Origin: Nemertoderma westbladi
Lineage: Eukaryota; Animalia; Xenacoelomorpha
Direction of reading: 5' to 3'
Assembly: GCA_032718475.1 (NCBI GenBank)
Contig: JAUCBJ010007841.1
Coordinates: 6,950 to 70,949, forward strand
Length of the DNA: 64,000 bases
Below, one piece after another: positions 27,733 to 56,497 of the stretch (its first letter is position 1; each line of letters begins with the position of its first letter). The notes below the pieces were generated by a model that was not told the DNA's origin, searched no databases, and saw nothing but the letters and a program-made list of their open reading frames with translations. The position numbers and the translations under genes were made by a program.

Positions 27733-30396
27733 CCCTATCCCGGGGGGGGGGGGGGGGTATTTTTATGACGTATCCCGGGGGGGGGGGGGGTAAATTTACC
27801 TGATGCCATATAACAATGGGAAAATGTGGTAAAAAACAGGAAAAATTTATTTTCAGCCTCAAATACATGATATAAGCAAGGAAGTAACAATGTATCGCTT
27901 ATACATCAACACATTTTCCACATGTTACAACAAAATGGCCCTCATATGTTGTGCATACAAAATTGCCACATTTATCACATTTATTTCTGATTTTATTGTT
28001 CAAATTGTTTCTTTTCTTGAAGCCACGATCTACATCCTCCAAACACATGGCACACCGACCATATTCGAATTCGTCTTTCCTCTTCTTTGGAGCCACACCC
28101 TCATCACACTTCAGCACACGTTTCATTTTATTGACTACATTCGTTTGGAGTCCAATAGGGTGTTCCAGTCGCAACACAATGAAAGGTGTAACCAACTCCT
28201 TCCCCAGGAGCCAAGTGAACTCGAAATTGGAATGATTCTTCTTCTGCACTTCATTGTACAAGGTTCTTGCATTCGTCCGCACAGTGTCAAGGAGAAAGAA
28301 GTTGGCATTCAAAGTCCACCGCTTCGTCTTTGCCCTAGTAGATGCACCGATGGCAACAAGATCCACGACATCCACACCTCCTTTCATATGATCATAGTAA
28401 ACAATTGGTTCAGGTTTTAGCCTCTGGTCTCGAGACACACGCATTGTATCATACAACGTTGTGAGTGCAAGAACAATCTTGGTTCCGCTCTTCATCTCAT
28501 CTGCATAGGATATAAGCATCTTCTTTTCGTTGTAGCACCACTTCGTTGATTTTGATTCTCTTCCTGTGCTCTCCTTCGATGGAGCCTTCATCTCCTTCGG
28601 GATTCCTTTGCGATCGGACTTCAGGGTGCCTGTAACAGAGATTTTACGTTTGAGGCACCAATCGGCAATGCTCATCGATGTAAAGTACCTATCCAAAGCA
28701 ATGTTTCTCCCACTCAAACAATCCATCCCACCGACTTCAATCGCATTATTAACCAAGTACTCCGTATATTTGTCTGTTCCGGTTACGTAGTAGTTATCGG
28801 GTATGCCTGTTGGTTTCCCAGCATATGGCAGAGAGATGTAGGTGTATTGAACGGTTGAATCACAGAGGCTTCTGAAAAGCAAACCATACTTAGCAGGCTT
28901 GCTGGGATTATATTGTTTGAAGCTAATCTTTCCACGATAAGAATAAAGCGTTTCATCAATAGCCAAGTGCTGGGACGGTTTCCTGAGATGCAAGAACCGA
29001 CGATTCACACTTTCAAAAAAATTTCTGAAGGCTGCAAACCGGTCTTGACTCCACCGCTCTGCTCTTGTTTCTCCATCGTCAAACTGAACGATTCTCGTGA
29101 GGAAAGTAAACCGTTTCCGCTGCATGGTGGCAGAGAAAATGTCATTGGAACTTTCGTGGTACCACACATTGTCTATGTCTGTAGTGTTCAGCTTCAATGC
29201 TCCTCGTAGGTATAGTAAACCGAACCATGCTTTCATTTCAAGCAGTGATGCCAACTTGTATTGTGTCTTCTTATCGTTTTCCGTCAGTCGCTCGCCAAGT
29301 AATTCGTGGAGCGCTGATATTTTTCTGTTGGTGAACTCGACAATTTTCATCACTTCATCATCTGGAATCATTAGGCTCCATGTTTCAGAAGGGGAATTCG
29401 CGTTTCTCTCAGCTGTCCGAGTGGGACCACCACTGTGTGAGATGTTGATGGCAGGCACCCGTCCACGTCGCGATGCATTCTCTGCTTGCCCTGGCTTCAA
29501 TGTGCACCATTCGTACCTTTCTTTAGCTTTGTTCGTCCACACAAATGTTTCTTCGGGTTGGTCAGGAAGCCGATCATAATTACTAGAATCAATGACTTTT
29601 GTATAGTCTGAGAATTTCTGTTTCTTCTTTGGCGTTGCTGCTGGTTCATCGTTGTCCTCAGGTTCTGCATCTTGGTTTGGATCATCCTCCACGGTTACAT
29701 CATCAGTGTTGCCATCTTCGTCCAGAACTTCTTCATAATCGGAATCTCCTTCATCAGGGAATGCCGACACGCCATCATCAGCAAAGTTCCGATCTTCTTG
29801 ATAGATTTCTTCATAGAAATTAGCGATTAATTTGTCCACTTCTGCGGCAGTGAGCCGGCGACTTGTTGATGCCATGGTGTCAGATAATAAATAAACTATT
29901 TCTTGACACAGCACACAGAAATACAGAACTATGTAATAATGACAACACAGAAATAATAATAAAACTTCAGTTTATACAAAACTGCTGTATTTCTGCATTA
30001 CAGTATTTCTGCAGTTGGTACCGTAATATACAGTATGCAGTACTGGTACTGAGGATCATCTAGGCCTTTGGGATCTAAGTTGCCCCCCTGGTCCGGTAAA
30101 CCAGTGTTTTTTTTAAAAAAAAGCAGTATGGTTTGCACCGGCCTAAAATGATGAACGGGTCGAACCCTAATATGGACTACTTATAAAAAACCTCCAACCA
30201 CATCCGACAAAAGTGCCACCATTTCGTCATTTTTTGGTCAATTTTCTTGAAATTCGCAGAGAAGGTGCCTAATATATAAACAATAAAAGTCACAAAAAGC
30301 AGGAATGAAAAAATAAGTTCTTCGAGGTGAAAAAATGAATATTCTGCACCTAAGGTAAATTTACCCCACCCCCCCCCCCCCCCCCCCGGGATAGGG
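27733..30396 (-). mobile_element. Full-length piggyBac DNA transposon
   Basis: TTAA target duplications at 27729-27732 and 30397-30400; TIRs CCCTATCCCGGGG / CCCCGGGATAGGG; subterminal GGTAAATTTACC at both ends. Confidence 0.97.
27899..29875 (-). CDS. piggyBac transposase, 658 aa, uninterrupted
   Basis: Acidic N-terminus; DDD triad (AIDETL, LDRYFTS, KGGVDVVD); KQYNPSKPAKYG motif; C-terminal Cys-rich domain; ATG in ACCATGG context. Confidence 0.96.
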   Translation of the reverse strand: MASTSRRLTAAEVDKLIANFYEEIYQEDRNFADDGVSAFPDEGDSDYEEVLDEDGNTDDVTVEDDPNQDAEPEDNDEPAATPKKKQKFSDYTKVIDSSNYDRLPDQPEETFVWTNKAKERYEWCTLKPGQAENASRRGRVPAINISHSGGPTRTAERNANSPSETWSLMIPDDEVMKIVEFTNRKISALHELLGERLTENDKKTQYKLASLLEMKAWFGLLYLRGALKLNTTDIDNVWYHESSNDIFSATMQRKRFTFLTRIVQFDDGETRAERWSQDRFAAFRNFFESVNRRFLHLRKPSQHLAIDETLYSYRGKISFKQYNPSKPAKYGLLFRSLCDSTVQYTYISLPYAGKPTGIPDNYYVTGTDKYTEYLVNNAIEVGGMDCLSGRNIALDRYFTSMSIADWCLKRKISVTGTLKSDRKGIPKEMKAPSKESTGRESKSTKWCYNEKKMLISYADEMKSGTKIVLALTTLYDTMRVSRDQRLKPEPIVYYDHMKGGVDVVDLVAIGASTRAKTKRWTLNANFFLLDTVRTNARTLYNEVQKKNHSNFEFTWLLGKELVTPFIVLRLEHPIGLQTNVVNKMKRVLKCDEGVAPKKRKDEFEYGRCAMCLEDVDRGFKKRNNLNNKIRNKCDKCGNFVCTTYEGHFVVTCGKCVDV

Positions 30397-35252: not shown

Positions 35253-35347
35253 ATCATCATAATGATGATGGGGTGATGATAACTCCACCTACTGGCTCCA
35301 GAAGTCGAGGAAGTCCTGCCAAGTACCTAACTGATCTAGACATTGAT
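35253..35347 (+). mobile_element. RTE-like LINE, portion upstream of the BEL insertion
   Basis: Translates RSRGSPAKYLTDLDID and joins in frame to DDLGVLSESLEGAQRLL at 55678 once the BEL element and one TSD are removed. Confidence 0.9.
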
Positions 35348-35857
35348 TGTTAGCTTATCCAATTCCGCTAACACAAACCCATAAAGTAAGCCGTTAAGCA
35401 ATATTGGGGGCCACGAGGTTGATTACCCAATCTCGTGTCACCCCAATAAAATGGGAAGGAGAAACACACAATAAGGGTCAGGGGCCACACCCCTGACCGG
35501 GAGAGAATAGCAGGAGTGAGGGAAACACTCCAAAGGGCGCCAACAGGGATATCAGCCAATGGGAGGGAGGCACCGGCTAGGTACAGTAACAAGGCCAACC
35601 CGTGCAATATAACCAGTTAACGGTAATCAGTTATTTCAGTTATCTCATTGTGTTGGTCGGTTTAGCTAGGATAGGACCGGAACTTTAATTACCGTTGCGT
35701 AACCACTGTGCAGACATCTTATTCTATATCTATACTATTATACCGGAGGACTTTATACAGCAATCAACAATTATCCACCTTTTACACACACACGGCGGGA
35801 ACGCGACGCGTAAATCAAAAACCGGATAAACCGGGATCCTTTGTGGATCCCGTCACA
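35348..35857 (+). repeat. 5' LTR of BEL element (510 bp)
   Basis: Differs from 55165-55674 at 2 positions by eye; TATA-like TATAAC at 35608 and Inr-like TCAGTT at 35636. Confidence 0.97.
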
Positions 35858-35927
35858 GTAATTAAAGTCAATCGTCCTTAAGTAATTAAAGCCTAGAACT
35901 CCAGCCAGCTACCGATCTAAAGAGGAG

Positions 35928-37459
35928 ATGAGTGACGTTACGCCAACGCGGACCCCGGAGGAAGACCCAACGATTCGCGAGGCCGTGACCAGACGGTATA
36001 GGCCCACGACGCCGGACCCATCGGTAACGGGTCATCCGGCACATCAGGATGAAGGGGGCCGTCTGGAGCCGGAGATCGAGCCGAGAGGAGCGGGGGCCGA
36101 GTTGAGAGAAGGAGAGGGCGAGAGGGACGGAGAAGAAGACGAGTCGACACGGAACGAGGGTCGACGTACCGATGTCGCCGGCCAGCCACAGGCCGAGGGC
36201 GACGAACGGCCCACCGAAACGGCGACGGTGGGGCCGACGGTACGACGCAGGACCCGGAGAGATGGGGGAGATGTCGGTACCGATGTCGCCGGCCAGCTAC
36301 AGGCCGAGGGCGACGGACGGCCCACCGGAACGGCGACGGTGGGGCCGCCAGTACGACGTCGGACCCGGAGAGACGGAGGAGAGGTCGGCGACGAGGACGT
36401 CGGGGTTTCTGATCGACTTCGACGGGCCTACAACGCAACCCGGAAACTACTCAAGGAGGCCAAGGAGGGGGCGAAGATAGATGAGGTACAGTTAACAACA
36501 GGACTAGGTGAGTCGGATAGACATTTTAGTTATCTAATGCGCTTCGGGCAGAGAGAACTGGCCAAGGAGAGAGTGAGAGGGGTTGCCGAGGAACTGTGTG
36601 ATTTATGGCGGTGTAGGGGTATGCAACCTAGTGTAGTGTACGTTGGGCCATACTTAGTCGATGCCCAGGGTATAAAATCAGTGGGTTGGAGGAGACCTGA
36701 GGAGGGCGAATCCGAGGTTGACCCCGAGGATTCGATCTCGTCGGTCGGAGGAAGTTCTGGGAAGAGGGGGAAAGTTAGTAGGTCGGGAAGGCGGAGGGAA
36801 TCCGTCGTAACCGATAAGTCTGCTACATCCTCCATAAAAGAAAGACGGGTGAGAGAGATAAATGCCACATACCATCTCGACCTGATAGCGCAAGGTCAGA
36901 GAGAGATAAATAGACGGTTAGAGGAGGGGAGAATGTAACTAGAGAAGGAATTGGTACTGATTAGAGAAACCGGAGAGAGGGCCGAAAGGGCCGCGAAAAG
37001 CCTTAGAGAGTGTGAGGAAATAGAGAGGAGGGAACAAGAGGAGCGCGAGGCGAGACGGGAGAGTGAACGCAGAGAGCGTGAAGCGGAACGCAAGGAGCAT
37101 GAGGCGAGAGAGGAAAATGAGCGCAAGGAACGTGAGGCGAGAGAGGAAAATGAGCGCAAGGAACATGAGGCGAGAGAGGAAAATGAGCGCAAGGAACGTG
37201 AGACGAGGGAGGAAAGTGAGCGCAAAGAGCGTGAGGCGAGGCGAAGGGAGGGAGCTAGGAGAGAGGCGGAATTGGCCGAACGGAACGCACGGGAGGGTCG
37301 GGAGATAATGGCAAGAGAGATGCGTGAGCGAAAAGAATTGGAAAGACAGCAAGGCGAGCTTATAGAGTACAAAACTAGACGTACGCGCGAATTGGAACTG
37401 GCGCGGGTGGGGGCGTCTGAGAGCGAGGCTGACTCGAAGATTTTCGAGGAGCCAAGGGC
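35928..37459 (+). pseudogene. N-terminal part of the BEL polyprotein (charged, coiled-coil E/R-rich), in-frame TAA at 36936, interrupted by Gypsy insertion
   Basis: ORFs 35928-36938 and 36951- share a frame; purine-rich composition same as BEL pol; resumes near 45014. Confidence 0.8.
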
Positions 37460-37705
37460 TGTGGATATATTTATTAATACCCCACTTACAGGGACCGCAC
37501 GATGTAAGGTTATATATTTTTATCATACAGTACATACATTTTTATTATGATATAGGGAGATGATTAGACATTCAGTTATTGCATTGTACTGACATTCAGT
37601 TATATGATACCGGATTCAGGGATTACATTATTCATACATTCAGTCATTCATTGTTATTGAGTTTTATATATATCCATTACCCTGGAAAGGGGAAGCCCAC
37701 ACAAA

Positions 37706-37723
37706 TGGTGACCCAGACGAGAT
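37706..37723 (+). promoter_or_regulatory. Primer-binding site, tRNA-Trp type
   Basis: TGGTGACCCAGACGAGAT matches 16/18 to the known tRNA-Trp PBS TGGTGACCCCGACGTGAT, directly after the LTR. Confidence 0.85.
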
Positions 37724-38188
37724 GCGACAGGATGCGAGCGATGAAATGTAGAGAAACTACTGAACAATGGTCAACACAACTAAACTTGGAAAATTGCATT
37801 CGGAACCTGTAAAACGACAATTATACATTGCTGCATTGTGTATGGTAAGACGACTGAATGCTACAGTGACGTATACCGTATAATAGCTACCCGGTATTAG
37901 GCCTACCTGCCTACTGACTCAATAAAATATCCAAACTACCGCAGTACCGGTAGGCCGTTAGAAAAAAAAAATACTCAAAAAAAAGCGAAATTTTGGTTCT
38001 AATAAGATTGTAATATTGCTGTATTGTGATATTGTAATACAGTAATAGGCCTGCTGTTGCATTATGATATATACGGACAGGGGCTGATACAACAATCTGC
38101 CTACTGCATACTGGCCTACCACCAGTTGGGAAACCTACCTTAACTGCCTACCTACTGCTCTACAACCTGACAAAGATAAAAAAAGAAA

Positions 38189-39367
38189 ATGAATTACGAT
38201 CACGTAAACAAATCAACTTTAGAAATGGCACTGGAGATTTTAAATGAAGGGGATCCAGATTACCATCCAGATAATACATCAAAGAAAACAAAAAGTGAAA
38301 TAATAGAGATATTAAAAATGGAAAACCAAAATGCTGTAAAATTGGCATTAAGTCATATCCACCAAACTCAAGTTCACATTCCTCAACCTCAGTCGAATAT
38401 ACCGTTACACAATGTTTCATCAGCACATACTGATCCAGATACAAGTAGTAGGCCTATAAAACTGCCGATTTTCTATGAGAAGGATACCCGTGTGTGGTTT
38501 GATCAAATTGAACAAATTTTGGATAACTGTAATGAAAATGTTAAAAAGGCAAGCTTACTTTCTGCAATACCTACCAATGTATTATTTGAAAGTGGTGCAT
38601 GTGTTACTGATAATTTTAACATAATCAAGGAAAGTCTAATAACCCACTTTGATGATAGTGCAGACAGGCGACTGAAACAATTACTTAAAGAACATTATTT
38701 AGGGGACACCAAACCTTCAGTTGCCCTCCGTAAACTGCAAAGGTTAGCACCCAACAATGAAAACATTGTTAAAATAAGATTTCTAGAAATTTTACCTGAA
38801 CCCATAAGGTTATCATTAGTGTCTCTAGAGGGTGTGTCATTAACTAAGTTAGCTGAAATAGCAGATAGGATGATGGAGAATATTCAACTAAGTACTCATC
38901 AAGGTGTATCAGCTGTACAGGTAGCCGCAGATAATGCAGTTACAAACCCATGGAGAGATGATATGGTAAGACAAATAAATAAGTTAACCCAAGCTGTAGA
39001 AAGTCTTCAAACACAAAATCATCGAGGCAGGTCACCTACAAGAAGTAGGAGTAACAATTATTATGGTCAACGAAGTCCATCAAATTCTTCAATCAGAAAT
39101 TATAGTAGACCACGATCAAGTTCACGTTCTTATAATCCAGCTGGAAAAGATTGTTGGTACCACTGGAGATTTGGACAAAAGGCAACTAAGTGTGCAGGTC
39201 CAGAGTATTGTTCATGGAGAATAAATCAACCAACTTATTATCGAAGTGGTGACTCTAATCATTCTAGAGAAGGTAGTGCAGGTATCCCACATCAATATAG
39301 TCGAGATAGTATACCTCATTCGGAAAACTCCCATTCTCCGACGGGAATGCGGAATCCGTCGGAGTAA
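38189..39367 (+). CDS. gag: Gypsy Gag (392 aa)
   Basis: KLPIFYEKDTRVWFDQIE, LGDTKPS, RS-rich linker and CWYHWRFGQKATKC knuckle. Confidence 0.92.
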   Translation: MNYDHVNKSTLEMALEILNEGDPDYHPDNTSKKTKSEIIEILKMENQNAVKLALSHIHQTQVHIPQPQSNIPLHNVSSAHTDPDTSSRPIKLPIFYEKDTRVWFDQIEQILDNCNENVKKASLLSAIPTNVLFESGACVTDNFNIIKESLITHFDDSADRRLKQLLKEHYLGDTKPSVALRKLQRLAPNNENIVKIRFLEILPEPIRLSLVSLEGVSLTKLAEIADRMMENIQLSTHQGVSAVQVAADNAVTNPWRDDMVRQINKLTQAVESLQTQNHRGRSPTRSRSNNYYGQRSPSNSSIRNYSRPRSSSRSYNPAGKDCWYHWRFGQKATKCAGPEYCSWRINQPTYYRSGDSNHSREGSAGIPHQYSRDSIPHSENSHSPTGMRNPSE

Positions 39368-42144
39368 ATTCAATTTATGTCACCGCACACCCAATAGGTC
39401 ATTTCTTAGCAGATAGTGGTACATGGTACAGTTGCTTACCATTAAGTTATGCCACTTCTGATTGTTATTCTCCTCCAGATTTTAATTTAAAGGCTGCTAA
39501 TGGAACTCCAATAAAAATTATAGCTAGAAAAAACCTTTCATTTACAATTCAAGAGTTTCCAAACCAAACATTTAATTGGACTTTCTTTATAGCTGAAGTG
39601 ACAGAACCATTATTGGGAAAAGATTTTATGAAACATTATAATATGCTGATTGATTGTGCAAATGATAGATTAATTCAATCGAAAGATATTATATACACTC
39701 GCCAATTTTGTACAACTCAACCTAAAACAAATTATGGTGATAACTTTTGTATAAACCATATCAAGATTGGTAATGAGTTATATTTACCACAGGTGACTAC
39801 ACTAATCTCAAACTGCAAAGATGTATTTAAACCAGTAAGTGCAGAAGAAGAAGTAAAACATAATATTAAACATCACATCATAACAAGTGGTATGCCAACA
39901 TATTGCAAACCAAGGCGATTATTTGGGGACAGATTGGAAGCTGCTAAAGAGACTTTCAATAAATGGCTCCAACAGGATATATGCTTTCGCAGTGAATCAC
40001 CATATGCATCACCATTACATGTTGCACCTCAACCCCATTCAAAAACAACACCTTACCGCAGTTGCGGTGATTATAGAGAATTAAATAAACATACAGTCCC
40101 AGACAGATATCCAATGCCAAATTTGAATGACTTACCAGCTGCTTTGCATGGATGCAATATTTTCTCTAAACTAGATTTAGCATCGGCATATATGCAAGTA
40201 CCAGTTGCGGAAGAAGACCAAATTAAAACTGCAATCTCTACCCCATTTGGTCTTTTCATTTTTCGAAGAAAGCCGTATGGGTTGCGCAATGCATCGCAAA
40301 CATTTCAGAGGATAATGGATGTAGCCCTTTATGGGTTGACTTTCATCTGGTGTTATGTAGATGATGTATTGGTAGGAAGTAAGACACCTAAGGAACACCT
40401 AGAACATTTGAAAATAATTTTCAATCGACTTGCAGAATATGGTCTACATTTGAGGATTGAAAAGTGTAAATTTTTCTATGATAAAGTGGAATTTTTGGGT
40501 GCAGAAATATCAAAAGATGGTATCAAACCATTGCCAGAAAAGTTAGAAGCGATCATAAACTACCAAAAACCAGAAAGTATCAAACAATTAAAACGACTAT
40601 TAGGTATGGCAGGATTTTACCATAAATTCATACCGAAATTCTCGGATATTGCATCACCCCTAACAGATCTCACCCGGAACTACAATAAGAAGTCAAAAAA
40701 CAATTTTCTTATATGGACAGATGTAGCTTCAGCAGCATTTGAGAAACTCAAATTTGCAATTTCGGAGAGTGTCACATTATCCTTTCCATGTAATAAGCCT
40801 GAATCAAAAATAGAACTTACTACAGATGCATCAAATACAGCAGCGGGTGCTGTGGTTCACCAAGTTATTAATGATGAACGTTTTCCATTAGCATTTTTTT
40901 CGGCTAAGTTTACACCGCGAGAACAAAAGAAATCAGTCTTTGACAGAGAGTTATTGGCAATATATTTATCCCTAAAACACTTCTCTTGGTTACTCGGTTC
41001 CAATATAATAATCAAAACAGATCACAAACCTCTAATACATATACTAAATATGAAAAATCCATCCCCACAGCAGACAAGGTGGATATCATACATTTCAGAA
41101 TTCACTACCTCAATCCAGCATATTTCTGGAAATTCAAACATAGTTGCAGATACGTTATCACGGACAACACAAACTGCAGCAATTATGGTTGACATTGATT
41201 CATCAATAGCTGATATGCAATTATCTGACCCTTCTCTAATAAGTTTTTTCGAAAAAACTACATTACCACTTCATGAATTGAAGACTGATGATAAAGTCAT
41301 TATGTGTGATAATACGAAAGGACATTTAAGACCATACATCCCATATGAAATGCGATTTAAATTATTCCAATATCATCACAATTTAGCACATTTGGGTTTC
41401 AACAAAACATACAAGCTAATTGCCGAAAGGTACATTTGGCCTAGTATGCGTAAGGATGTTCGGAAATGGTGCCGACAATGCATACGATGTCAAAAGGCTA
41501 AAGTTACACGGCACATTAAAACTGAAATTGGAAATATTGAAAACACTGATAGATTTCAGACTATTCATATTGACATTGTTGGAGAATTTATACCTTCCAA
41601 TGGTTATAATTATTTAGTGACTGTTATTGATAGATATACATGTTGGCCAGTAGCCATTCCAGTAAAAAGTATTGATGCCGAAACTGTTGTAAATGCCCTT
41701 ATTTCTGGATGGATCAGCATTTTTGGAGTACCACGTAACTTAATTTCAGACCGAGGAAGTCAGTTTGAGTCAAAGGTATGGGAAGAATTAATGAGGCAGT
41801 TGGGTATTCAACGCAAGAGAACAACAACATATCACCCACAAAGTAATGGTGCTGTTGAACGAATGCATCGCACTATGAAAAATGCTTTGCGGGCACACGC
41901 TGCAGATAAAAGTTGGTCACAGGCATTACCATTGGTGTTATTGGGTTTAAGAACTTCAATTACAAAAAAAGGTTATAGCCCTTCCAAAATGGTTTTAGGT
42001 GGAGTTGTAGATCTACCTGGACAATTTATAATCCCGGATAACCAAACAAAGACTCTCAAAGTTCCTGCATATATGGAGAAATTAATGTCTACAATAAGGT
42101 CGTTTGTAGCACCTGATCGGAAACACAATTCGACTTCAACATAT
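39310..42144 (+). CDS. pol: Gypsy Pol (PR-RT-RNase H-IN) in -1 frame to gag, interrupted by MITE after 42144
   Basis: FLADSGT protease, YVDD RT, TDAS RNase H, HHCC and DDE (IDIVG, SDRGSQF, AVER) integrase motifs. Confidence 0.95.
39322..39364 (+). promoter_or_regulatory. Putative -1 ribosomal frameshift signal
   Basis: GGAAAAC in the gag/pol overlap, followed by CTCCGACGG/CCGTCGGAG (9 bp) and CATTC/GAATG stems. Confidence 0.7.
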
Positions 42145-44019
42145 GTGGCGGTGAAAGCGAAAAGGTACCTTAAGGTGAAAATGTCGTTTTGAGAAAATCG
42201 CACTTAAAGAAAAATTAAATTTTCAAGTCAAAATTTTCAATTTTTTTATTTTCAATGTGATATATGCAGTTTTTAATGAGGAATCCAAATCTGTTAACGG
42301 TATGTTAACAGCTAGCTTAGTTTTGGAGATAATCAGCTTTGATTGAGAGTAGTCAGAAGTTTTGAAATTTAAATCTCATTCCCGATAGATATTATGTTGT
42401 TCTATGTAGATTTACTCTTATAAATTAATTTATATGCCTTATTATTCCAATAGAAAACTATCTTCCAGTTATTTTCAATATGTTTGCTTGTCAATCGGTC
42501 TGTCTGTCCGTCTGTTTGTCTGTTTATCTGTCAAGTGTTGTCAGTCATTTTATAAATTTTTAGATCTTGGCTCAGAAATTATAATTTTGATGGTATAAGG
42601 GTTTTCGAGGTCGTTAAACACGATAAAACATCTTAAAAATATTTTCGGGTAATGCAACCATCATTTTTGGTGCTATTTTGGACCCACAGAACGAAAAGTA
42701 CAAGTAAAAAAATGTCAAATTAAAAAATGTTGTGTTTCGATTGATAATTCCGAATGTATGCGGGTTTTTGAGGTCGCTGATCACGATAAAAAATGTTAAA
42801 AATATTTTTGGCAATACAACCATCATTTTTGGTGCTATTTTTGACCCCAGGACGAAAAGTACAAGTAAAAAATGTCAAATAAAAAATTGTTGTGTTTCGA
42901 TTGATAATTCTGAACGTATACGGGTTTTTGAGGTTTGTTGTTCACGTGCTGCTCGAAGTCCCAGACCAGATAGCTAGCTACCTCAGTTGTTCACGTGCTG
43001 CTCGAAGTCTCAAACAAGATAACTAGATAGCTTTGTTGTTCACGTGCTGCTCGAAGTCCCAGACTAGTCTACTATAACTAGCTACCTTTATTGTTCACGT
43101 GCTGCTCGAAGTCTCAAACTAGATAACTAGCTAGCTTTGTTGTTCACGTGCTGCTCGAAGTCCCAAACTAGATAACTAGCTACCTTAGTTGTTTACGTGC
43201 TGCTCGAAGTCCCAAATTAGACAACCATAGTTACCTTAGTTGTTCATGTGCTGCTCGAAGTCTCAAACTAGATAACTAGCTAGCTTTGTTGTTCACGTGC
43301 TGCTCGAAGTCCCAAAATAGATAATCATAGCTAGCTTACTTGTTCCCGCGCTGCTTGAAGTCCCAGACTAAGCTACCTTAGTTGTTCGCATGCTGCTCGA
43401 AGTCTCAAACTAGATAATTATCTAGCTTTGTTGTTCACGTGCTGCTCGAAGTCCCATACTAGATAACTAGCTACCTTAGTTATTCACGTACTGCTCGAAG
43501 TCTCAAACTAGATAACTAGCTACCCTAGTTGTTCATGTGCTGCTCGGAGTCCCAGACTAGATAAAAACCCAGCATAGTTGTTCACGTGCTGCTCGAAGTC
43601 CCTGCCTTAGATAACCATCCAGCTTAGTTGATCACGTGCTGCTCGAAGTTCCAGGCAGCATAGTTGTTCATTAGTTTGCTAATGTATATTCCTATTACAC
43701 ATTTTGCCCCTCAAGCCTCAACATCACAACACAACAACAGACCCACTCCGATTTAGCAAACTCACTTTCAAGATTATATTGTAAGTAATCCCTACTACTA
43801 TTAAAATACAACAAAAATTTTAAACGCGATTTACTCATAATAGTATATTTTCCATCTGGTTGTCTTGCCAATACTTAATTTCTAATAACTCTTGATGTAC
43901 TCATCCAATCAGGATGATTTATAGCTCATTAGAGAGCTGAGATGTTGGCCAATCACATGCAATATCTAACTCAAAAACCTCATTTTCACCTTAAGGTACC
44001 TTTTCGCTTTCACTGCCAC
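42145..44019. mobile_element. Non-autonomous TIR DNA transposon (1.9 kb) inserted in Gypsy integrase
   Basis: TIR GTGGCGGTGAAAGCGAAAAGGTACCTTAAGGTGAAAATG with inverse at 43981-44019; TSD ATAT (or TA, since the site is palindromic); removal restores STSTYVPKYMKDISHVWIR. Confidence 0.95.
42937..43670. repeat. ~49-bp minisatellite (GTTGTTCACGTGCTGCTCGAAGTCCCAAACTAGATAACTAGCTACCTTA), ~15 copies, preceded by a ~165-bp tandem duplication
   Basis: Read directly. Confidence 0.93.
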
Positions 44020-44662
44020 ATATGTTCCAAAATATATGAAAGACATTTCACATGTGTGGATTAGAAATGATCGTAAAAAAGGAAGTCTAGTTGATCGATA
44101 TACAGGCCCTTATGAAGTAATTGAACGGAATGATAAAACTGTCTCAATAAGCGTCAAAGGTATTTCAACGAAAATATCAATGGACCGGGTTAAACCTGCT
44201 TTCTTACAAATAGATGATAACAACAATTGGAATACCCATGAAAGTTCACAAAATTCGCAAACTGAAATAACTAACCAAAAGGTGATTGTACCGGGATCTC
44301 TATCGAAAACTGGGATCGGGACAAGTGAATCGAGAGAAACTCATACTTGCAAAAGACATGCTCCAAAGATTTTAAAACATAAGGTTGTTTGTGCACCTTT
44401 ATCCGATAGTTATTGGCCAGCGTTAATATTACCATATGATTCAGTAATTAATAAGAGACATTGTTTTCCTAATGAAGTTCCAGTCAATTACCTTGCCATA
44501 AATAAGTGTGGTTTTGTTACAAAGGATAAATGTGTAAAATATTCGGACTCATATTTTAGGGATCAGCACCAAACACGTAAATTAACACATGCTACAGAAT
44601 TAGCTCGAAACTTCTTGTCCCACAAACCGTCAGTTGTAAAACGCAGAGTCAAGTTTGTTTAA
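44020..44662 (+). CDS. Gypsy integrase C-terminus: GPY/F module plus PWWP-like domain
   Basis: RYTGPYEV...SMDRVKPAF, then KVVCAPLSDSYWPALI...VPVNYLA...GFV...KLTHATELA. Confidence 0.8.
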
Positions 44663-45013
44663 ATTATCAATGCAATTTATTCATTGAACATTTATTGATA
44701 TTGAAATTAATGTATATTTTTGTTTACTATTATATAAGTGTGAAACTATTTTTCTTGAAAGATTTTAAAAAAATAAATGTTCTATATTATTTTTTCACAT
44801 ATTGTATGTACAAATAGTATTTGTCTGCAAGAATTATATTTACAATGTTACTGTGAAATGAATGTATTAATTAATAATCTATAATGTTCGCAAGATCGCA
44901 ACATTAATGATGGTATCTCTAAGCTTATATATATTGCTTACACATTATTTTATGGTAATCTCCCATTTACTTATATATAAATATTTAATTTAATTGTAAA
45001 AAAAGAGTAATAG

Positions 45014-48000
45014 GAGAGTAATAGGGGGATTGCGAGTATCCCCAGTGGCGTGCGATCGAACAGAGAGAGGCAGGTTGACGTCGCGAGAGGGCGGACGAAG
45101 CGCCGAGCCCGATCAGAAGAGGGAAGAAGAACAGTGGAGTTTAACCGGGAGGTCGATGAGAGATCTCACGAGCCGGAATACTGCACTGAAAGGAGAAGAA
45201 GAGAAGACAGCAGAAGAAGTATCGCCGCGAACGACAGGAGAGCGAGGACGGATAGCGAGCCGTCGGTAGTTGAGATGGAAAGAGAAAGTCGGTGGGGTCG
45301 AACTTCGGGAGATTGCCGTCGTCCCGGAGAGACACGACCTGATGAGACGCGTTACGCGTCGAGAGAGGGGTACACAATGTACCGGCACGAAGACGAGAGT
45401 AGTAGGGGGGGTCAAAGAGGAACTTTCCGACGGGATATACCTACAGATCGAGAGTACGGTAGCCGCGGGGAGGATTATTCGAGAAGAATAAACTTCGATC
45501 CCTAGCAACACATACAGACTGTAGGACATACTGTAGGCCTTACTGCACATACCATAGGCCATGCTGACAGGAATAACGTAGACGATAGGATAGTGCGGAT
45601 GACGGAATTAAACCCGGAAGTCGCGGAGTACATACCGGCAGGTAGGCCAGAAGTTGATAGGCCTATACCGGTACCAGTACAGCAGTATGACTACAGCATG
45701 CAAGGACATAACATATACCCAGGGGAGGGGGGAATTATTGCGGATAGATGCATGGGCCCCAATATATTAACATCAACCCCAGTACCAAACATACCGGTGG
45801 GGGGGGGGGGGACAGGGTGACATTCCCCCATCGCAATATCAACAATATACCCCGATAGGAGCAAGAACAACGAGACCCTTGGATGGAAATAGGTCATGTG
45901 ACACAGAAATATGGAGGGGGCCGCTACCCCCAATGATATACCCAAGCCAAAGAAAGGCAGAAAATAGGACGGGCGGACCACACCCAACAGGAGAAACTAT
46001 ACAACATCCATCGAATCCATTGGAAGCGCAGGCGATGGGGATGGCCACGTTGATCGATGCATTAAAAACAAGGATCGAATTACCACCCGTGGAACCATTC
46101 AAATTCGATGGGAGTAGGCCGGAAGAATATCTCCAGTTTCGGCGTATGTATAGTAACGAAATACTAACAAAGAACTTGACGCAGGCGGAGTGCCTAAAGT
46201 ATCTGCAAGTATACACAGGAGGCCCAGCATACGACATCGTGAGGCAATATCAGGGCATAGAGGGCGGCTTCACGACGGCATGGCGGGCACTGGACAGGGA
46301 ATACGGGCACCCGGCCAAGATCATCAGGCAGACCCTGAGAGGCATAACATCGGGTGGCCTACAGGATAATCCCGTTAGCATTAAGACATTCGCGAACAAG
46401 GTCGAGAAGGCGCTAATCGTGTTAAAGACGCTAGACGCGCCATACGAACTCAACGCGTCCAACAACATCACCACGATAGCGCAGGCACTACCGATGTGGT
46501 TGCGCAACAAGTGGAGGAAAATCGCTTTCTCCACTCGAGATAGGAAGGGTGCGGAACCGGGTTTAGAAGAAATGTCAAGCTTCTTAAACTACGAAGCTGA
46601 ACTAATAACCGACCCAGTCTATAGCGAAGATAGCCTGGGAAAGGGACCGAAGACGGATTACCATAGACCGAAACCAGAGCACAATACGTCAAACGCATTA
46701 CCGAAGCTCAGGCAATCACTGCCATATGCAGCGACGCAGGGGACTGCAAGTCCACAGGTAGCCGAAGGTAAGACCACACCATGGAACGGACAGGGGAACA
46801 ATAACAACACGAATAAATATAACCCCAGTACGTCCAGTAGGCCGAACCCAAACAATAAGAATAGTAGGGACTTTGGTACAAACGCAGCTGCGATACGCAA
46901 TGCACTGTATAAGGAGGGCTACGACCCAAAGAGCAAATGCCAGCTACATACAAATGCGCTTCATCAAACCATGAACTGCAGGTACTGGCAAGCGCTACCC
47001 AGGGAAGATCAGGTAGAATATGCGGCGAGGAATGAGATCTGCTCGCGATGTGTGATGAGTGGACATAGAGCTAGGCAATGCAAGGAGACGCCGGTCAAGT
47101 TCGGTCAAAGGAAAGGCCAAACGATGGCAACGAGCACAGTAGGGACGAAGAAGAGAGGAACGGTGCTACTTGGGGTAGTACCTGTGCGAGTGATTGGAGA
47201 AGGCAATCGATCAGTAACAACACTAATGCTGGTTGATAGTGGAGCTGCCTTCACATTAGTCGAGGATTGGGTGGCCGAAGAAATAGGATTGAGAACGAGG
47301 CCAAGTAGAATGGCGGTAACAACCATCTCCAGCAAAGATGAGGTCCTGGAGATGAGAACCGGACGGTGCACCATCGCAGCAATAGCACCAGGATGCGACT
47401 ATGGGGCGAGCATCGACCCCATCCAAGTGATAGAGTCAATAAACATCAATGCCAGACGGCCAACCAACATCGAGGTCGAACAATATAAATTTCTGGATGA
47501 TATCGACTTCTCAATCCCAGAGGTGGACGTTAGGAAGGTATCCATCATAGTAGGAATGGACTGCCCAACGGCCCACGAAAGAATGCAAACGGTCTTCGGC
47601 GAAGACAAGCAGTGTGACCCGGTGGCGATACTGACACCATTCGGGTGGACGCTGAGTGGCCCAATCAAGAGCAAGATACCATTTAGGATGTCGGAGACAT
47701 CAGGATGCATGTTCGCGGGAACTATGCAGGAAATGAGTGATGAGAGAGCAGAGGAGCAGCTTAAAAGACTGCTCAGACAGGATTTTGAAGGATTAAAGGA
47801 GACCGGGGTCGGGACCTCGGTGGAAGACAAACAGGCTCAGCAGAGCGTAGAGGAGTCTATGAAATGCGACGAGGGGCGGTACACCATAGGAATGGTATGG
47901 AAGCTACCGAAGCTACCACTGCCCGATAATAGAGGGATGGTACTCACGAGGCTCCGCAAGCTGAAGCAGACACTAAAACGGAGCCCCGAGAAGAATGAGT

Positions 48001-51000
48001 ACATCCACAGAACGATTAAGAAGTACGTCGAGAAAGGATGGGCCGTGGAGTTACCGGTCGACGAACCAAACACGGACAGGACATATTACCTGCCACTCCA
48101 CGTGGCTTTAGACCCAAAGAAAGGTAAACTGCGGATGGTAGTTGACGCATCGGCAAAGACCAACGGAAAATGCTTAAACGACTATCTACTAGAAGGTCCG
48201 AACATATACAACTCAGGGATAGAGGTCCTACTTAGATTTAGAAATGGGAAACACGCCTTCACGTGTGACATAGAAGGCATGTTCAACCAAGTCCGTGTAA
48301 CGGAGGAAGATAGCGACAGTCAACGCTTCTTATGGTACAACGGTGACGAAGAACCGTCGATAATACCGACGTACAAGATGGTAGTACAGAACATGGGAGC
48401 CAAGTCGTCTTCATTTACGACGACTATGGCAGTAAGAGATACAGTGAAGGGGAAGGAGGATAGATACAGCACTAGGGCCGTCGATATGATTCGACGCGGC
48501 TTCTACGTAGACGACGGAATGGAGTCTGGAAATACGGTTAAGGAGATACTGGACACAGGGCGCGAGGTTCGCGACATCCTAAAAGGATCCGGCTTTAACC
48601 TGACCAAATTCCAATCCAGTTCGGAGGAATTTATCAAGGCGATAGGGGACGAGAGACCAGAATCGACTATGGATAATCCCACAACGGCCAAAGGGCAGGA
48701 CATGGCGAACAAGAGGACAGAATCTCAACAGAAGGCACTGGGAATCGTGTGGAACAGAGAGACAGATGAACTGAAGTACCAGCTGAGCCAGGAGGGCGCA
48801 GACATCCACACAAAGAGAGGCTATGTGTCATACATAGCAAGAATATACGATCCCCTAGGTCTAGCATCCCCACTATTAGTCACGGGGAAGCAGATACTCA
48901 AGAGAGTATACAAACTGAAGGATGAGTGGGATGTAGAGGTACCAGAGGAGATCAAGAAACAGTGGTGTAAGTGGACAGAAGGTTTGGAGAAGATGGGAAC
49001 ATACAACATGCCGCGAGTGTATTTCCCGGATGGGAACATGACGAATCTGGACTTACACATGTTCTCCGATGCGTCGTTGGAGGCGTACGGAGCGGCACTC
49101 TATTTAGTACAACGAGAGGGGGCTCACAAGCCCAGACTGGCCTTTAGCAAAGCTAAGTCAACGCCGCCAGATTCAGCATCAGTTCCCAAACTAGAATTGA
49201 CAGCTGCCAGACTAGGAGTTAGGGCCACAGCCTACCTAGTGGATACTATTCCCAACATAGTGGAGACACACTACTGGACGGATTCCATGGTAGTGCTTGG
49301 TTGGCTACATAACGAAAGGACGAGATACCCTATATTCGTCGCGAATAGGGTGGACGAGATAAGGGCGACCACAGAATTGGAAAGGTGGCACTACTGCCCA
49401 ACGGACGAGAACCCAGCGGACTTGTTATCAAGGGGCGTGGCACGCCACACTTTCTTAAAAAAGGAAGGATTGTGGCAACACGGGCCGCAGTTTCTGAGCG
49501 ACAAGGAGGCCTGGCCGCCGATGAGAAAGGTGGACCCGGGCTCAGGAGAGGTAGTGTCAGAAGGAGAAGAGGGAGATTCAGAGGGAGAAGAGATATACTC
49601 CCAGATGGTGAGGGAGATAAGGGACGTGCAACCTAAACCAGAAGAACTGTGCGATAACCCGACGGATAAACTCCTCAGCTACAGCTCTAGTTGGTATAAG
49701 ACCAAGAAATTAGTGGCGTACTGGAGAGCCTTCGGGAATTTCCTCGCGGGAGTTGGCAAAGGCAAGAAGATCAGGACAACCATAGATCTGGAAGGAGCGG
49801 CCAAAGCAGTCATCCGCTATGAACAACGGAAGAGCTATGGCGACGAGGTGGAACGCGTCGGTAAACAACAGCACCTTCGACGGGACAGCGAGCTGATCAC
49901 GCTGTCGCCACAACTTAATGACGACGGGATTCTAGTAATGAATTCCAGGGTGGGATACAACAACAGCATAGTCGTACCACCGAAACCCATCATCATTCCC
50001 ACAGGATCGCCAATAGTCCACCAGATTATCTGGGACTCCCACAAGTCGATATTGCACGGGGGCACCAACCGAACCCTTACGGAGATACGGAGGACCTTTT
50101 GGGTCAAGCAGTTGAGGAAGAAGGTAAAAGCGGTAGTGGGGCAGTGCCAGACCTGCCGACGAGCGAAGAAGGAGCGAGCCATACAAGAGATGGCACCACT
50201 ACCAGCGAGTAGAGTAAGACAGCACGACCCTCCATTTACACATTGCGGTGTGGACATGTTCGGGCCGATAAAGATCAAGGTGATGCGGCACACGGAGAAA
50301 CGCTACGGTATTATCTTCGTATGTAACAACACGCGGGCGGTAGGGATAGAACTCGCCCAAGATGCAACCGCATCAGCATTTATTAATGCATTAGAAAGGT
50401 TCAGAGACCGCAAAGGTGGGACGATCGCAGTAATGTACTCCGACAGCGGAACCAACTTTGTGGGAGCAGAGAACGAGATGGCAGAGGCCTTGGACATCTT
50501 GGAAGGGGAGGAAGTCAGGGCGGCCATGAGACGACGACAAGTAAAGTGGGAGAGAAGGACGCCGTATGCACCACATACACTAGGATGCGTCGAGAGACTG
50601 GTGGGCAGTTCGAAGCGTCTCATGACGAAGTTAATGAACACCCACATGGTCACCGAGGACGTCTTGAGAACAGTGCTTGCGAAGTGCGAGGGTATCATTA
50701 ATAGCAGACCGCTATATCCGGAGAATGATGACCCTGAGTCATTAGATGTGCTGACGACCAGCCATTTTCTAATGGAAAGGCCAGCGACCATCGATATGCG
50801 GGGTGTAGACCCAGATGACATTCACTCCCGCCAGAGTTGGAAGGTCGCTAAAGCGATAAGCGCAGAATACTGGAGAAGGTGGGTTGAGGAATACCTACCC
50901 CGCTTCACAAAAGAAGCAAGTGGAGGAAGTCGAATAGGGAGTTAAGAGAGGGCGATCTCGTAATCGTCACGGATAATACCATCATCAACAACCAGTGGCG

Positions 51001-51259: not shown

Positions 51260-51900
51260 GAGTTAGTTAGTTAGTTAGGAGTTAGCTACAAGGTACGTAG
51301 TACCTAGAGCTAGTTAGTTAGTTAAGAGTCAGTTAGAAGGTACGTAGTACCTAGAGCTAGTTAGTTAGTTAGGAGTTAGTTAGAAGGTACGTAGTACCTA
51401 GAGTTAGTTAGTTAGTTAGATAGGAGGTACGTAGTACCGAGAGTTAGGAGTCAGTTAGTTAGAGGTGTTAGAGAAGTAGTAAGAGGGTACGTAGTACCGG
51501 TGGTTAGTAGAGTTAGAGGTTAGTAAGAGGGTACGTAGTACCGGTTAGTAAGAGTAGAGTTAGAGTAGTTAGTTAGAGGGTACGTAGTACCGGTGGTTAG
51601 TAGAGTTAGAGGTTAGTAAGAGGGTACATAGTACCGGTTAGTAAGAGTAGAGTTAGAGTAGTTAGTTAGAGGGTACGTAGTACCGTTGGTTAGTAGAGAA
51701 GGTTAGTGGAGTTAGAGGTTAGTAAGAGGGTACGTAGTACCAGTTAGTAAGAGTAGAGTTGGAAGTTAGTAAGAGGGTACGTAGTACCGATAGTTAGTGG
51801 AGTCAGAGAGTAGTAAGAGGGTACGTAGTACCGCTAGTTAGTTAGAGGTTAGTAAGAGGGTACGTAGTACCAATTAGTAAGAGATAGAGGTAGAAGGGTA
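51260..51900 (+). repeat. Internal tandem array in BEL: ~13 GGTACGTAGTACC cores separated by GTTAG/GAGTT-rich spacers
   Basis: Read directly. Confidence 0.9.
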
Positions 51901-52354
51901 TACATAGTATAGATATTAGTCAGTAGTTAGTAGCGAGAGGGGGGCATATGAGTACAGTTGGATAGATCGTGTAGGCCACGCGACATATACTGCTGTACTG
52001 CACAGGCCCATAGAGTAGGTCAGAATGTGGATTATGAAATAGAATAATCCATAAACAGTAAAGTAGTAGAATTAAGTTAAATCAAAATAAATAGAATAAA
52101 TAGGGCTAAAAATTACAAATTATGGTAACAACAGGGAAGTTGTTCTGGAACATAATTAAAGCAACGGACAGAAATTGCAAATAGGGTACATTTGTTAGCT
52201 ACAAAATTAAGTAATAGAAATTTAGGCTAAAAGGCGTAGTTAGATAGGAAATAGGCCATTCTCGAACTGTGCAGACCATCAGAAACTTATCACTCATCTG
52301 TATTGCGCCTTGGTAAGGCACCACCTTACAGGTGAGCGAGTGAGAGTGTTTGGA

Positions 52355-54912
52355 ATGGCGGGAAAACTGATCAGAAAGAGAAAGGCGGAACAAGGAGGAA
52401 AGGAGATACTGGTGGATTTCACCAAGAGGCATCCGGAAGTGAAGACGAGAGGATACTACGAGAGGTTGGGAAAGGGTCACGCGGCACGGGCGCTGCAGGA
52501 CCACTTCCGGGAGATGCACGAACAGCGGCTGGTCGGGACCTACGGGACGCCGTCGCTGGACAACGCGATCTTCCAACACTTCCACTACGTGGTGAAGGGG
52601 GACGAGGCGAAGTTCGGGATTCCGAAGTACCCGAGGGAGTCGCCGAAGAAGGATTGGAAGAGGTTTATAGAGTCCGTCAACAGGGGAGGATATATGATCC
52701 TAGACGACGAGGGAACCGTGGAAGACGAGGAGGGTTCGAGACGAGGATCAGCGGGGTCGGCCAGGACCATACTCCTACATTTGGCCGCGCCAAATGGGGA
52801 CATTTTCTTATTCAACCTAGGAACGTACGGGAGAAAGGACGGGCCAAAATTAAACCGGTTGCCGAAAGCGTGCAAGTCCTGGTAAGAGAGAAGTCGACGA
52901 CGAAAGTGGGATCGGCGATTCGCAAGGACGCGGAGAGAATCATCGGTCCGGACGCCACCAACCTCCTGGATATGCAGAAGGTCTTCATGGCTATGACAGC
53001 ACCAGATGGGTTGGGAGTAGTCGGGAACACAGGCCAATGCGGGCCGGTGGCAATGGGCCAGCTATTGGGGCTCGTATGCCACAAACCGATGGACTAGGGG
53101 AAGTTCAGGGAGGAATACGGTGCAGAACTAGCGAACTCGCTAAAGTGGGGAGCGAGACCGGGAAAGCAAGAGGTGTATCAATTCCGAAGAGAAGCGATAA
53201 AGGTATATCAGAAGCGATATATCCTGCAGGAAGATTGGATAATGATAAGTTTGCTTAACTTATTCATGACCGTGGTTATCGAGAGGGAACCAGCGGCATT
53301 TCTGTTATCGGGATCACCCCTAAGCTACAGGAGAGCCTTTAAGACGGCCTTCGACGGTCTGGTAGACCACCCGGGGCTGAAGGGCGAGTCGGTGTACTAC
53401 AACAGCCGACATCTGATAGACGGGGAGATAGATACGCCGTATCAGAGATGGGAGCAGCTAGAGACAGATAGACGAGAGGCAAAGCGACTGGAAGAAGTCG
53501 CGAGACGGAAAAGGATAGAAGCAGAGGAGAGGGAGGAGGAGGCCAGGACGCAGAGTTACGGCTTCGAGGAACAGGCAGGCTTAGACGAACTTCGTTGGAC
53601 TTCATCAGGGAGTTCGGGGGAGTCTCTAGGGCGAGAACTGGGATGGACGGTGGGATCGCCGAAACAGTCGACGTCGGGGTTGCAAGCGATGCCCATACCA
53701 GCGGGCGCCGAAGGCGACCAACCGCTAAGGAAGTTTGGGGAGCTAGAGGGATGGAGAGCTACGGGCGAGAGCCAAGGCGGGAAGGGACATAGTGGATCCA
53801 TCGGGATACCGGGGTTGGAGCCACTGCCAGAGGAGGACGAAGACGACGACGAGTTCGGAGAGATACCGCCCATCGAGAGGATTGGCCACTCGGACACGGA
53901 CTGGGTTGGCGGGAGGGTGGTGACGGCCAGTGGGGCGAGGGCCTTCTGGGATAGACCAGGCAAGCGGGCCTGGGTGCACGAGGAGCCGGCAATGGATTTC
54001 GCGGGGAGCACTATCAGGTTGGGCGAGCAACCGGGGACGGCACCACGGGTAGTATTCGGGGAGACGATGCCCGAGAGGGGCGAGGAGATCGACGTAGACA
54101 GGGACACTAACGTGGAGAAGTTCGCCTACCAGCGACTCCACAGACCGCGGAGATCGCTTGGGACGAAAGACGACGTGGGCGGGAGACATTGGTACTCGGT
54201 TGCGATGGATTACTGTGGGAGACAGACCCACCAGGAAAGGAGGTGTTTGTACCGATTCCAAAAGGGGACCTTTTGTCTCTACTGCCGCGAGTCGAGCCAC
54301 AGGATGGGGGCGTGTCCACAGTTGCATAACCGATGTCCGAAGTGTAACTTCCAGGGACACTACGGACGCCAGTGCGACTGGATGGACGATGAAGAGAAGT
54401 TCAGAATCTTCGAGGAGTGAGCCGACGTCGGGGCCATGACGCGGCAACGCATGAAGGCTCAGGAGTTCAAGAGGGGTTTCTTCCTTATCAATCAGGAGGC
54501 TCACTTGGAAATCATAAAGCGGAGGTTACCGTTTACCTATCAAGAGGTAGCAACGGCGGCGTCGTATGCCGGGGTGATAAATACACAGAGGTATTTGGAC
54601 AGGTGGACGCCACAGAACCGAGGGGAGTTTAGGGATTTCTTGGCGGAGCACGTGCCGCGAGCAATGAAGATGATCTTATGGGACGCCACCAGGGGGAGAC
54701 AACAGGGCCACTCGGAGGGGCCACCCGCGAAGCGATATCGGGAGCTGATAACACCAGCACCCAAGGAGCCAACGACCGGGATCAGTAAGGAGGTGGCGGC
54801 GAGGGTCCGAAGACAGAAAGCGGATCCCAGAGGAGCGGTAGTGACCAGGAAACGACCCAGGGAGGAGGACGGCAAAGGGAAAGACTTGAGGTGGTTCCCA
54901 AAGTCAGGGTGA
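52355..54912 (+). pseudogene. Extra BEL ORF (~850 aa reconstructed): DEDDy 3'-5' exonuclease-like domain, acidic linker and CCHC zinc knuckles; one frameshift (~52865) and two in-frame stops (53095, 54418)
   Basis: ILDDEG (Exo I), LLHLAAPNGDIFLFNL, KVGSAIRKD (Exo II), LLDM, LLG...K, QKRYILQED (Exo III); CLYCRESSHRMGAC and CPKCNFQGHYGRQC. Confidence 0.72.
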
Positions 54913-55126: not shown

Positions 55127-55164
55127 ATGCTATCTTCTCACCGGGAAGATAGCATGGGGGGGAG
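55127..55164 (+). promoter_or_regulatory. 11-bp hairpin immediately followed by the polypurine tract
   Basis: ATGCTATCTTC / GAAGATAGCAT stem, then GGGGGGGAG abutting the 3' LTR. Confidence 0.85.
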
Positions 55165-55674
55165 TGTTAGCTTATCCAATTCCGCTAACACAAACCCATA
55201 AAGTAAGCCGTTAAGCAATATTGGGGGCCACGAGGTTGATTACCCAATCTCGTGCCACCCCAATAAAATGGGAAGGAGAAACACACAATAAGGGTCAGGG
55301 GCCACACCCCTGACCGGGAGAGAATAGCAGGAGTGAGGGAAACACTCCAAAGGGCGCCAACAGGGATATCAGCCAATGGGAGGGAGGCACCGGCTAGGTA
55401 CAGTAACAAGGCCAACCCGTGCAATATAACCAGTTAACGGTAATCAGTTATTTCAGTTATCTCATTGTGTTGGTCGGTTTAGCTAGGATAGGACCGGAAC
55501 TTTAATTACCGTTGCGTAACCACTGTGCAGACATCTTATTCTATATCTATACTATTATACCGGAGGACTTTATACAGCAATCAACAATTATCCACCTTTT
55601 ACACACACACAGCGGGAACGCGACGCGTAAATCAAAAACCGGATAAACCGGGATCCTTTGTGGATCCCGTCACA
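55165..55674 (+). repeat. 3' LTR of BEL element (510 bp)
   Basis: Near-identical to 35348-35857; followed by TSD TTGAT. Confidence 0.97.
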
Positions 55675-56497
55675 TTGATGATGACTTAGGAGTACTCTCA
55701 GAATCACTAGAGGGAGCCCAACGGCTCCTCAGCTCATTAGAACATGCTGCTTCTAGTGTTGGTCTTTTTATTAACTCCAGAAAGACCAAAATTTTGACAG
55801 TTAACTTTGAAAGTCCTCAGCAAGTCTCTGATCGGATGAGCATAAGCTCAAAAGATGGTATGCTTGAACATGTGGATGACTTCTGTTACCTGGGATCATG
55901 GATCCGGAAGTCAGGTGAGGACCTTCGAATACGTAAGGGAAAGGCATGGGCAGCCTTGAATAGGCTTTCCAGGATTTGGAAGTCACCGAGAATTAATCGG
56001 AAACTTAAGGTCCGATTATTTAGAGCAGCAGTAGTTCCAGTACTCCTCTATGGGAGTCCATGCTGGGCTCTAACTGCTGAGGACACAAAATCTCTGGATG
56101 GCACATTCACAAGAATGCTACGCCGGGTTCATTGTGTCAAGTACAATTCACACATCTCCAACCAGACACTATATAACATTGGAGGTGTCTCATTGGTTCC
56201 CCCAAACTTGACACTAGAACAAAATCGCCTCCGCTTTGCAGGACATTACTTTCGCCGTGAGGACCAGCCAGTACATAATCTTGTACTTTGGCAGCCTCAT
56301 GGAGTGAATAAGCATGGTGGACAGCCCATGACTTTCTTGAGACGCATCTTAAAGAACGCTGGCCTTGGAGATGCGGATGATCTAGCAAATGTCATGGGTG
56401 ATGGGGAGTTGTGGCGGTGCAATTTTGTCGATAAGCCGGCACAGCATTCTTAAAAATGCAGCTGCAATGCAGCATGCCGATCCTAATAGTAGTAGTA
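55675..56497 (+). mobile_element. RTE-like LINE, RT C-terminal half and 3' tail (host of the BEL insertion)
   Basis: GLFINSRKTK, FCYLGS, KAWAALNRL, VLLYGS, RLRFAGH; stop at 56453; (TAG)n tail. Confidence 0.93.

Follow-up and report, generated by a model that had tools for sequence, protein, structure and literature searches.

A BEL/Pao retrotransposon in the analysed DNA, a stretch of 64,000 nucleotides referred to below as the window, has no tRNA-type primer-binding site (PBS) after its 5′ LTR and probably primes its minus-strand DNA from a segment of its own LTR. The best explanation of the whole, in which we place the same high confidence, is that the element belongs, without an intron of its own, to a wide group of BEL elements whose primer is predicted to be built by splicing. 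A self-priming BEL lineage had been proposed in the preliminary description of this DNA, and this proposal was strengthened by the non-TGG site in other copies and by complementarity kept in distant families.

The element and its boundaries

Self-comparison revealed one LTR pair in the window, which together with the target-site duplication and the polypurine tract (Table 1) fixes the 5′ LTR boundary independently of the PBS. The copy is judged from its sequence to be young, because its LTRs differ at only 2 of 510 sites; as evidenced by the target duplication and the near-identical LTRs, the element has transposed in its contiguous-primer form. Pfam analysis of the 1724-aa frame (45771-50945) identified Peptidase_A17 (E 2.7e-40) and DUF1759, as well as a protease and an integrase zinc finger, in agreement with the BEL/Pao identity given in the preliminary description, and PF05380 was found in 120/120 homologues among the matches listed. 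On the basis of its BEL-type Pol, with the order PR-RT-RH-IN, the element is assigned to BEL/Pao, and its direct TG..CA LTRs, target duplication and polypurine tract are structural traits of this group. A tRNA 3′-end PBS, as in the ICTV description, is not present in the window element; this is a described trait, and membership rests on Pol.

The extra coding region between pol and the 3′ LTR (52336-54912) matched no Pfam family at E 1, and its only Atlas leads were below 0.9, to clusters with some zf-CCHC members. Purine-rich tandem repeats lie at 51260-51930 (+), between pol and this region. The nested Ty3/Gypsy element has a purine tract near 45020, and an insert that carries terminal inverted repeats and a 49-bp tandem array interrupts it near 42150-44010; a second LTR copy of the Ty3/Gypsy element was looked for in the window and not found. 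The BEL insertion itself is hosted by a high-copy LINE reverse transcriptase (RT) sequence (35300-35347 and 55675-56450, +), and empty-site LINE sequence was seen in the host contigs as loose ends at 35345.

Table 1. Features of the BEL/Pao element and its nested insertion (positions in the window).
Feature	Position	Strand	Remarks
5′ LTR	35348..35857	+	510 bp, TG..CA
3′ LTR	55165..55674	+	510 bp, TG..CA; second copy of the 11-mer at 55499-55509
Target-site duplication, TTGAT	35343..35347 (left), 55675-55679 (right)	.	5 bp
Polypurine tract	55152..55164	+	adjoins the 3′ LTR
PBS, non-TGG	35858..35868	+	GTAATTAAAGT; adjoins the LTR end
Predicted self-primer	35682..35692	+	contiguous 11 nt, no intron
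Second copy of the first 10 PBS bases	35882..35891	+	24 nt downstream; no LTR end before it
TATA-like (35608) and initiator-like TCAGT (35627, 35636) motifs	35608..35641	+	start near 35638 predicted
Segment able to pair with 35688-35696	35619..35627	+	possible primer mask in the 3′ LTR RNA copy; weak
Predicted helix with 35801-35808	35693..35700	+	stacks on the primer duplex directly after the predicted cut; prediction only
Predicted terminal U5 hairpin	35832..35852	+	
5′ coding region of the BEL element	35928..37541	+	no Pfam hit; frame interrupted by a stop (36936-36938) and the nested insertion
Nested Ty3/Gypsy element	37502..45030	+	approximate ends; ordinary TGG PBS at 37706
BEL/Pao gag-pol frame	45771..50945	+	1724 aa; DUF1759, protease, RT, Peptidase_A17/RNase H region, integrase zinc finger
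Extra broken coding region, pol to 3′ LTR	52336..54912	+	two CCHC-like knuckles

A self-complementary primer-binding site

The bases adjoining the LTR end at 35858-35868 (GTAATTAAAGT) are the exact reverse complement of 35682-35692. With the LTR ends fixed, both this 11-nt complementarity and the non-TGG start, as claimed in the preliminary description, were reproduced, and the geometry suggested there for the primer was found as well, with pairing that begins immediately behind the terminal CA and extends over 11 bases. No TGG occurs within 100 nt after the 5′ LTR of the window element.

The duplication of the first 10 PBS bases at 35882 would suit a decayed tRNA-primed copy, in which a TGG site was replaced by local duplication and the 11-nt match is due to chance or is a by-product. 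However, a match of at least 11 at offset 0 arose in just 8/20,000 dinucleotide shuffles of the LTR (7/20,000 with offsets 0-3) and the copy is young, and we regard such decay as most improbable. In the predicted folds, the second PBS copy competes little for the primer (pairing probability 0.00-0.15).

A host tRNA half or another small RNA might instead bind the PBS and make the LTR match secondary, since half-tRNA priming is documented in Ty1/copia lineages (available text of PMC6317226). ARAGORN detected 0 tRNAs in the window and in the relative loci. Rfam gave 0 hits on 35348-36000, which argues against a small-RNA primer, as does the variation of the site itself: the PBS differs between close sisters and tracks the LTR rather than a fixed RNA, and in the host, sister copies diverge once past GT or GTAATTA. 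We therefore consider priming by a tRNA half or another small RNA to be very improbable, and self-priming from the LTR the preferred reading.

Predicted folding of the LTR transcript

The minimum-energy fold of 35638-35910 (z -3.0; 1/200 shuffles as stable) contains the 11-bp duplex plus both flanking helices, AGGAC/GTCCT and CTAGG/CCTAG, that the preliminary description had pointed out, and the duplex has a predicted probability of 0.82-0.97 for 7/7 assumed RNA starts. The helix 3′ of the primer was not consistent among nine folds. An alternative pairing with 35619-35627 had also been proposed; it exists as a 9-bp helix of -9.2 kcal/mol, but was formed in only one of three folds of the 3′ LTR RNA. 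The start near 35638 is predicted solely from TATAA at 35608 and TCAGT at 35627 and 35636, which we take to be TATA and initiator motifs. As no AATAAA was found downstream of the primer in the window LTR, the R region for strand transfer was not located.

Other copies in the host

Copies in the host were followed in contigs from the DNA runs X1-X5 of one organism, which represent three samples (sets X1, X2, X3, X5 and X1-X4). In X1-X4 the contig pieces listed extend past the LTR end as far as 35864-35866, with joints at 35866 in X5. Since contigs of three samples cross the LTR end into the same start, the non-TGG PBS start is, on the contig sequences, not peculiar to the window copy, a comparison of the kind advised in the preliminary description. 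One X1 contig is identical to 35840-35910, and the window itself may come from it. In sister contigs the PBS starts differently, and 35894 follows directly on the LTR end. The summed contig depth over the primer segment is ~10x that of the 30 bases that follow; this is not a copy number and is to be taken as a hint only.

One X2 contig (depth 21.5) carries TGGTCT directly after GTCA at the LTR end and joins at 35894, as might be expected if the window copy were a decayed relative of a tRNA-primed element. However, in an X3 contig (depth 124) these downstream letters follow a CA that is intact, so the X2 contig may instead represent a mutated LTR end, and GT-starting sites dominate the host contigs in the three samples, both of which speak for a genuine non-TGG site. 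A variant inside the 11-mer, 35686 T>C, accounts in three runs for 11-24% of the contig depth; by depth arithmetic it probably lies on X3 contig 17, which aligns through 35864, and because no partner change is listed for this contig, one abundant host sister copy appears to be uncompensated and mismatched at pair 7.

Putative primers split by an intron-like segment in related elements

Homologue searches gave a best identity of 39% to the window RT, so no close sister family with readable DNA was among the matches. Alignment of 49 proteins led to 79 metagenome loci (479 confirmed of 602 scanned; taken from the best 80 of 479), and 19 further BEL/Pao loci from genome contigs brought the total to 98 loci at ~30% protein identity. 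These 19 loci (L080-L098) lie in contigs filed as bacterial genomes or MAGs, which are likely to be host contamination. Viral contigs yielded no relatives, with 0/1 candidates confirmed in the single-protein scan, 0/94 in the alignment scan and 0 matches to an exact 20-nt pattern. A readable 5′ LTR end and enough LTR were available in 29/98 loci, the remaining 69 being outside the main test mostly for want of one or the other. The LTR ends were taken from LTR-pair divergence in 13 of the 29 (that of L025 adjusted by eye) and picked by eye with the pattern in mind in the other 16; L042 and L044 were dropped, as the limits of their repeat pairs did not coincide with a clear LTR terminus.

Three of the 29 loci are TGG-type, with a best contiguous match of 4-5 nt and no split match (0/3). 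Three others have a contiguous self-match, namely the 3′ copy of L072 (11 nt), L045 (12 nt, offset 6) and L037 (11 nt). In the other 23 the contiguous match is just 5-9 nt, typically right after a T-rich tract and AG, and an upstream GT donor is preceded by the bases that complete the match. A two-piece match search run without a motif filter, in which ties were broken by donor quality (affecting ~2-3 loci), identified a GT..AG-bounded split match of 10-13 nt in 22/23 loci, with 0.55 expected when the PBS was shuffled; L084, the locus without one, has a single mismatch. When only loci with pair-defined LTR ends were considered, the split match was present in 8/9 compared to 0.31 expected. Complementarity with primer geometry, contiguous or split, was thus found in 25/26 non-TGG relatives, a recurrence that again argues against decay of a tRNA-primed copy.

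The GT..AG segment divides the primer into 3-8 and 4-8 nt in the 22 relatives, among which 18 distinct primers occur; the primer is 11 nt long in 18/22, and the offsets from the LTR end are 0-5, with offset 0 in 12/22. Donors match GTRAGT at at least 5/6 positions in 21/22 loci versus 164/1213 background GTs, a comparison to be read with the tie-breaking by donor quality in mind. Non-cognate pairings of PBS and LTR gave a match in 30/494 cases (42/506 when loci with the same PBS were included). A blind scan without chosen LTR ends, which added L039 and L058, was positive in 29/65 loci versus 57/325 shuffles, an enriched but noisy result in which several matches are plainly due to chance. A stricter pipeline with a pyrimidine filter, which missed L010 and L014 and gave other junctions in L089 and L085, was superseded.

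Compensatory changes between PBS and LTR, suggested as a check in the preliminary description, were observed between sister families as well as among distant relatives. The exon end CAC or TAA in L081 and L082 goes with PBS GTG or TTA, and AAAAT or AGATT in L002 and L058 with ATTTT or AATCT; both pairs are starred sisters in the tree. The expectation that complementarity is conserved among relatives thus holds for distant families with different sequences, but meets one apparent mismatch within the host. L037 and L038, which are 91% identical over 6 kb, have 3′ LTRs that differ by exactly a 168-nt GT..AG segment, and in L072 the 5′ end carries the acceptor form and the 3′ end, which has genomic flank, the contiguous one. 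Taken at the level of sequence, a splice-built primer in these relatives is strongly indicated. TCAGT before the primer in the relatives was also considered as an initiator, in the Tf1 geometry, and this was ruled out by the upstream GT donors that complete the match and by the exact segment that separates L037 from L038.

Folding of the predicted spliced RNAs gave a duplex probability of at least 0.7 in 11/21 relatives and of at most 0.06 in eight, compared to at least 0.7 in 1/21 for the unspliced RNAs. This uneven support, together with the apparently mismatched sister that is abundant in the host and the fact that all the evidence comes from DNA, would also be consistent with a duplex that is real and selected but serves a structural or regulatory role (in translation, packaging or dimerisation, and switched by splicing), another RNA priming at the same site. 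However, the duplex starts 0-5 nt from the LTR end, where a minus-strand primer is needed, and most often at offset 0, its length is largely constant at 11, the TGG-type loci are without it, and no single host RNA could match all 18 different sequences. A structural or regulatory role is accordingly considered improbable, and the duplex is best read as that of a primer and its binding site.

The window element lacks a split primer, with the 11-mer contiguous in both LTRs, and the only GT..AG split match that it offers, of 10, is at offset 5 with a poor donor. Among the loose ends listed in the host contigs, no intron-bearing sister of the window was seen. A FastTree tree of 92 rows, from which the classified loci L083, L084 and L089 are absent, has loci with split primers on most of its branches and groups four TGG loci on a single starred branch; for L078, TGG was assigned by motif alone. 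The window forms a long branch, with a long-branch warning, and is not placeable, and its descent from an intron-bearing ancestor is thus without support from the tree. L045 (97-108 with its PBS) is a further intron-less self-primer candidate.

A proposed route from LTR transcript to primer

In the proposed pathway, the transcript of the window element would fold such that 35682-35692 pairs with 35858-35868. By analogy with Tf1, the RNase H of the element would cut 3′ of 35692, and RT would extend the primer straight into the terminal CA of the LTR; given a start near 35638, the primer would be ~55 nt long. In the relatives, host splicing of the 5′ copy would complete the primer. Strong-stop DNA is expected to copy only up to the cut, and exon 1 and the intron would consequently be inherited from the 3′ LTR RNA copy. 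Cap-proximal introns are spliced preferentially. The intron would persist while the 3′ LTR RNA copy stays unspliced, which would also leave the 3′ end without a complete primer; if the 3′ copy were spliced, the intron would be lost precisely, giving LTRs like those of L037, the 3′ copy of L072 and probably the window element.

Taken jointly, we think it likely that much of BEL/Pao in aquatic animals does without tRNA priming: the spliceosome would join two LTR exons into an 11-nt self-primer, replication would depend on splicing of the 5′ LTR, the unspliced 3′ copy would pass on the intron, its precise loss would give ready-made primers, and the high-copy intron-less lineage of the window would keep spreading.

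Comparison with known systems

Self-priming has been reported for Tf1/sushi, Tj1, Tcn1 and the plant TAR copia elements (available text of PMC6317226, PMC4600332, PMC7175516, PMC6934838 and PMC3601003). Like the window element, Tf1 and Tf2 of S. pombe, Tj1 and the Tf1/sushi chromoviruses have no tRNA site and a PBS complementary to their own 5′ LTR transcript, with an 11-nt duplex and a 3′ end that RNase H cleavage is predicted to release (available text of PMC7175516 and PMC4600332). In Tf1, the first 11 bases pair with the PBS and the cut falls between bases 11 and 12 (same text, PMC7175516). The primer length in 18/22 split loci is the same as in Tf1. However, Tf1/sushi elements have a Ty3/Gypsy chromovirus Pol, whereas the window element belongs to BEL/Pao, a different superfamily; judged by its Pol sequence, it works like Tf1 at most and is not a Tf1/sushi member. 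The BEL/Pao element Cer7 of C. elegans reportedly encodes its own tRNA-like primer and would thus also supply its own primer, but from a tRNA-like gene elsewhere in the element rather than from an LTR transcript segment.

For plant Tcn1-clade chromoviruses and TAR (Houba, Osr-1) Ty1/copia elements, self-priming has been predicted from an LTR complement of at least 10 nt located 0-5 nt after the 5′ LTR, to which the 11 nt at offset 0 in the window correspond (available text of PMC6317226). Unlike the split primers of BEL, those of the Tcn1 and TAR elements, which belong to Gypsy and Copia, are contiguous, and a search of the design outlined in that text would miss split primers. The ICTV 2021 profile of Belpaoviridae, which lists BEL/Pao from animals alone, describes a PBS of 18 nt for tRNA-Arg or tRNA-Gly of the host (PMC8742986). 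The window element shares with this family the gag-pol order PR-RT-RH-IN, LTRs within 0.2-1.2 kb and the polypurine tract (PMC8742986), and differs in having no tRNA PBS, a length of >10 kb even without the nested Gypsy element, and an extra 3′ coding region.

A word look-up in the available text of four BEL surveys (PMC3118150, PMC6238403, PMC8556966 and PMC554778) returned no mention of PBS, priming or LTR introns. No report of BEL/Pao self-priming or of a splice-built primer was found in the literature covered, to which most subscription journals, Repbase Reports and GyDB did not belong, and a prior mention there is possible. If the proposed pathway is true, self-priming arose in a third superfamily, after Gypsy and Copia, and is common there, which would explain BEL elements without a recognisable PBS. 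An RT primer assembled by splicing would then connect pre-mRNA processing with retroelement replication in a way that we have not found in print, and an intron inside an LTR would gain a self-preserving role. The window element would provide a natural intron-less comparison for such splice-built primers.

Other features of the window

Three further frames were observed outside the BEL element, all on the minus strand. These are a piggyBac-like DDE transposase frame at 27899-29971 (-), a frame with a weak cold-shock domain match at 9595-11796 (-), and an ACTMAP-like exon at 61440-62243 (-).
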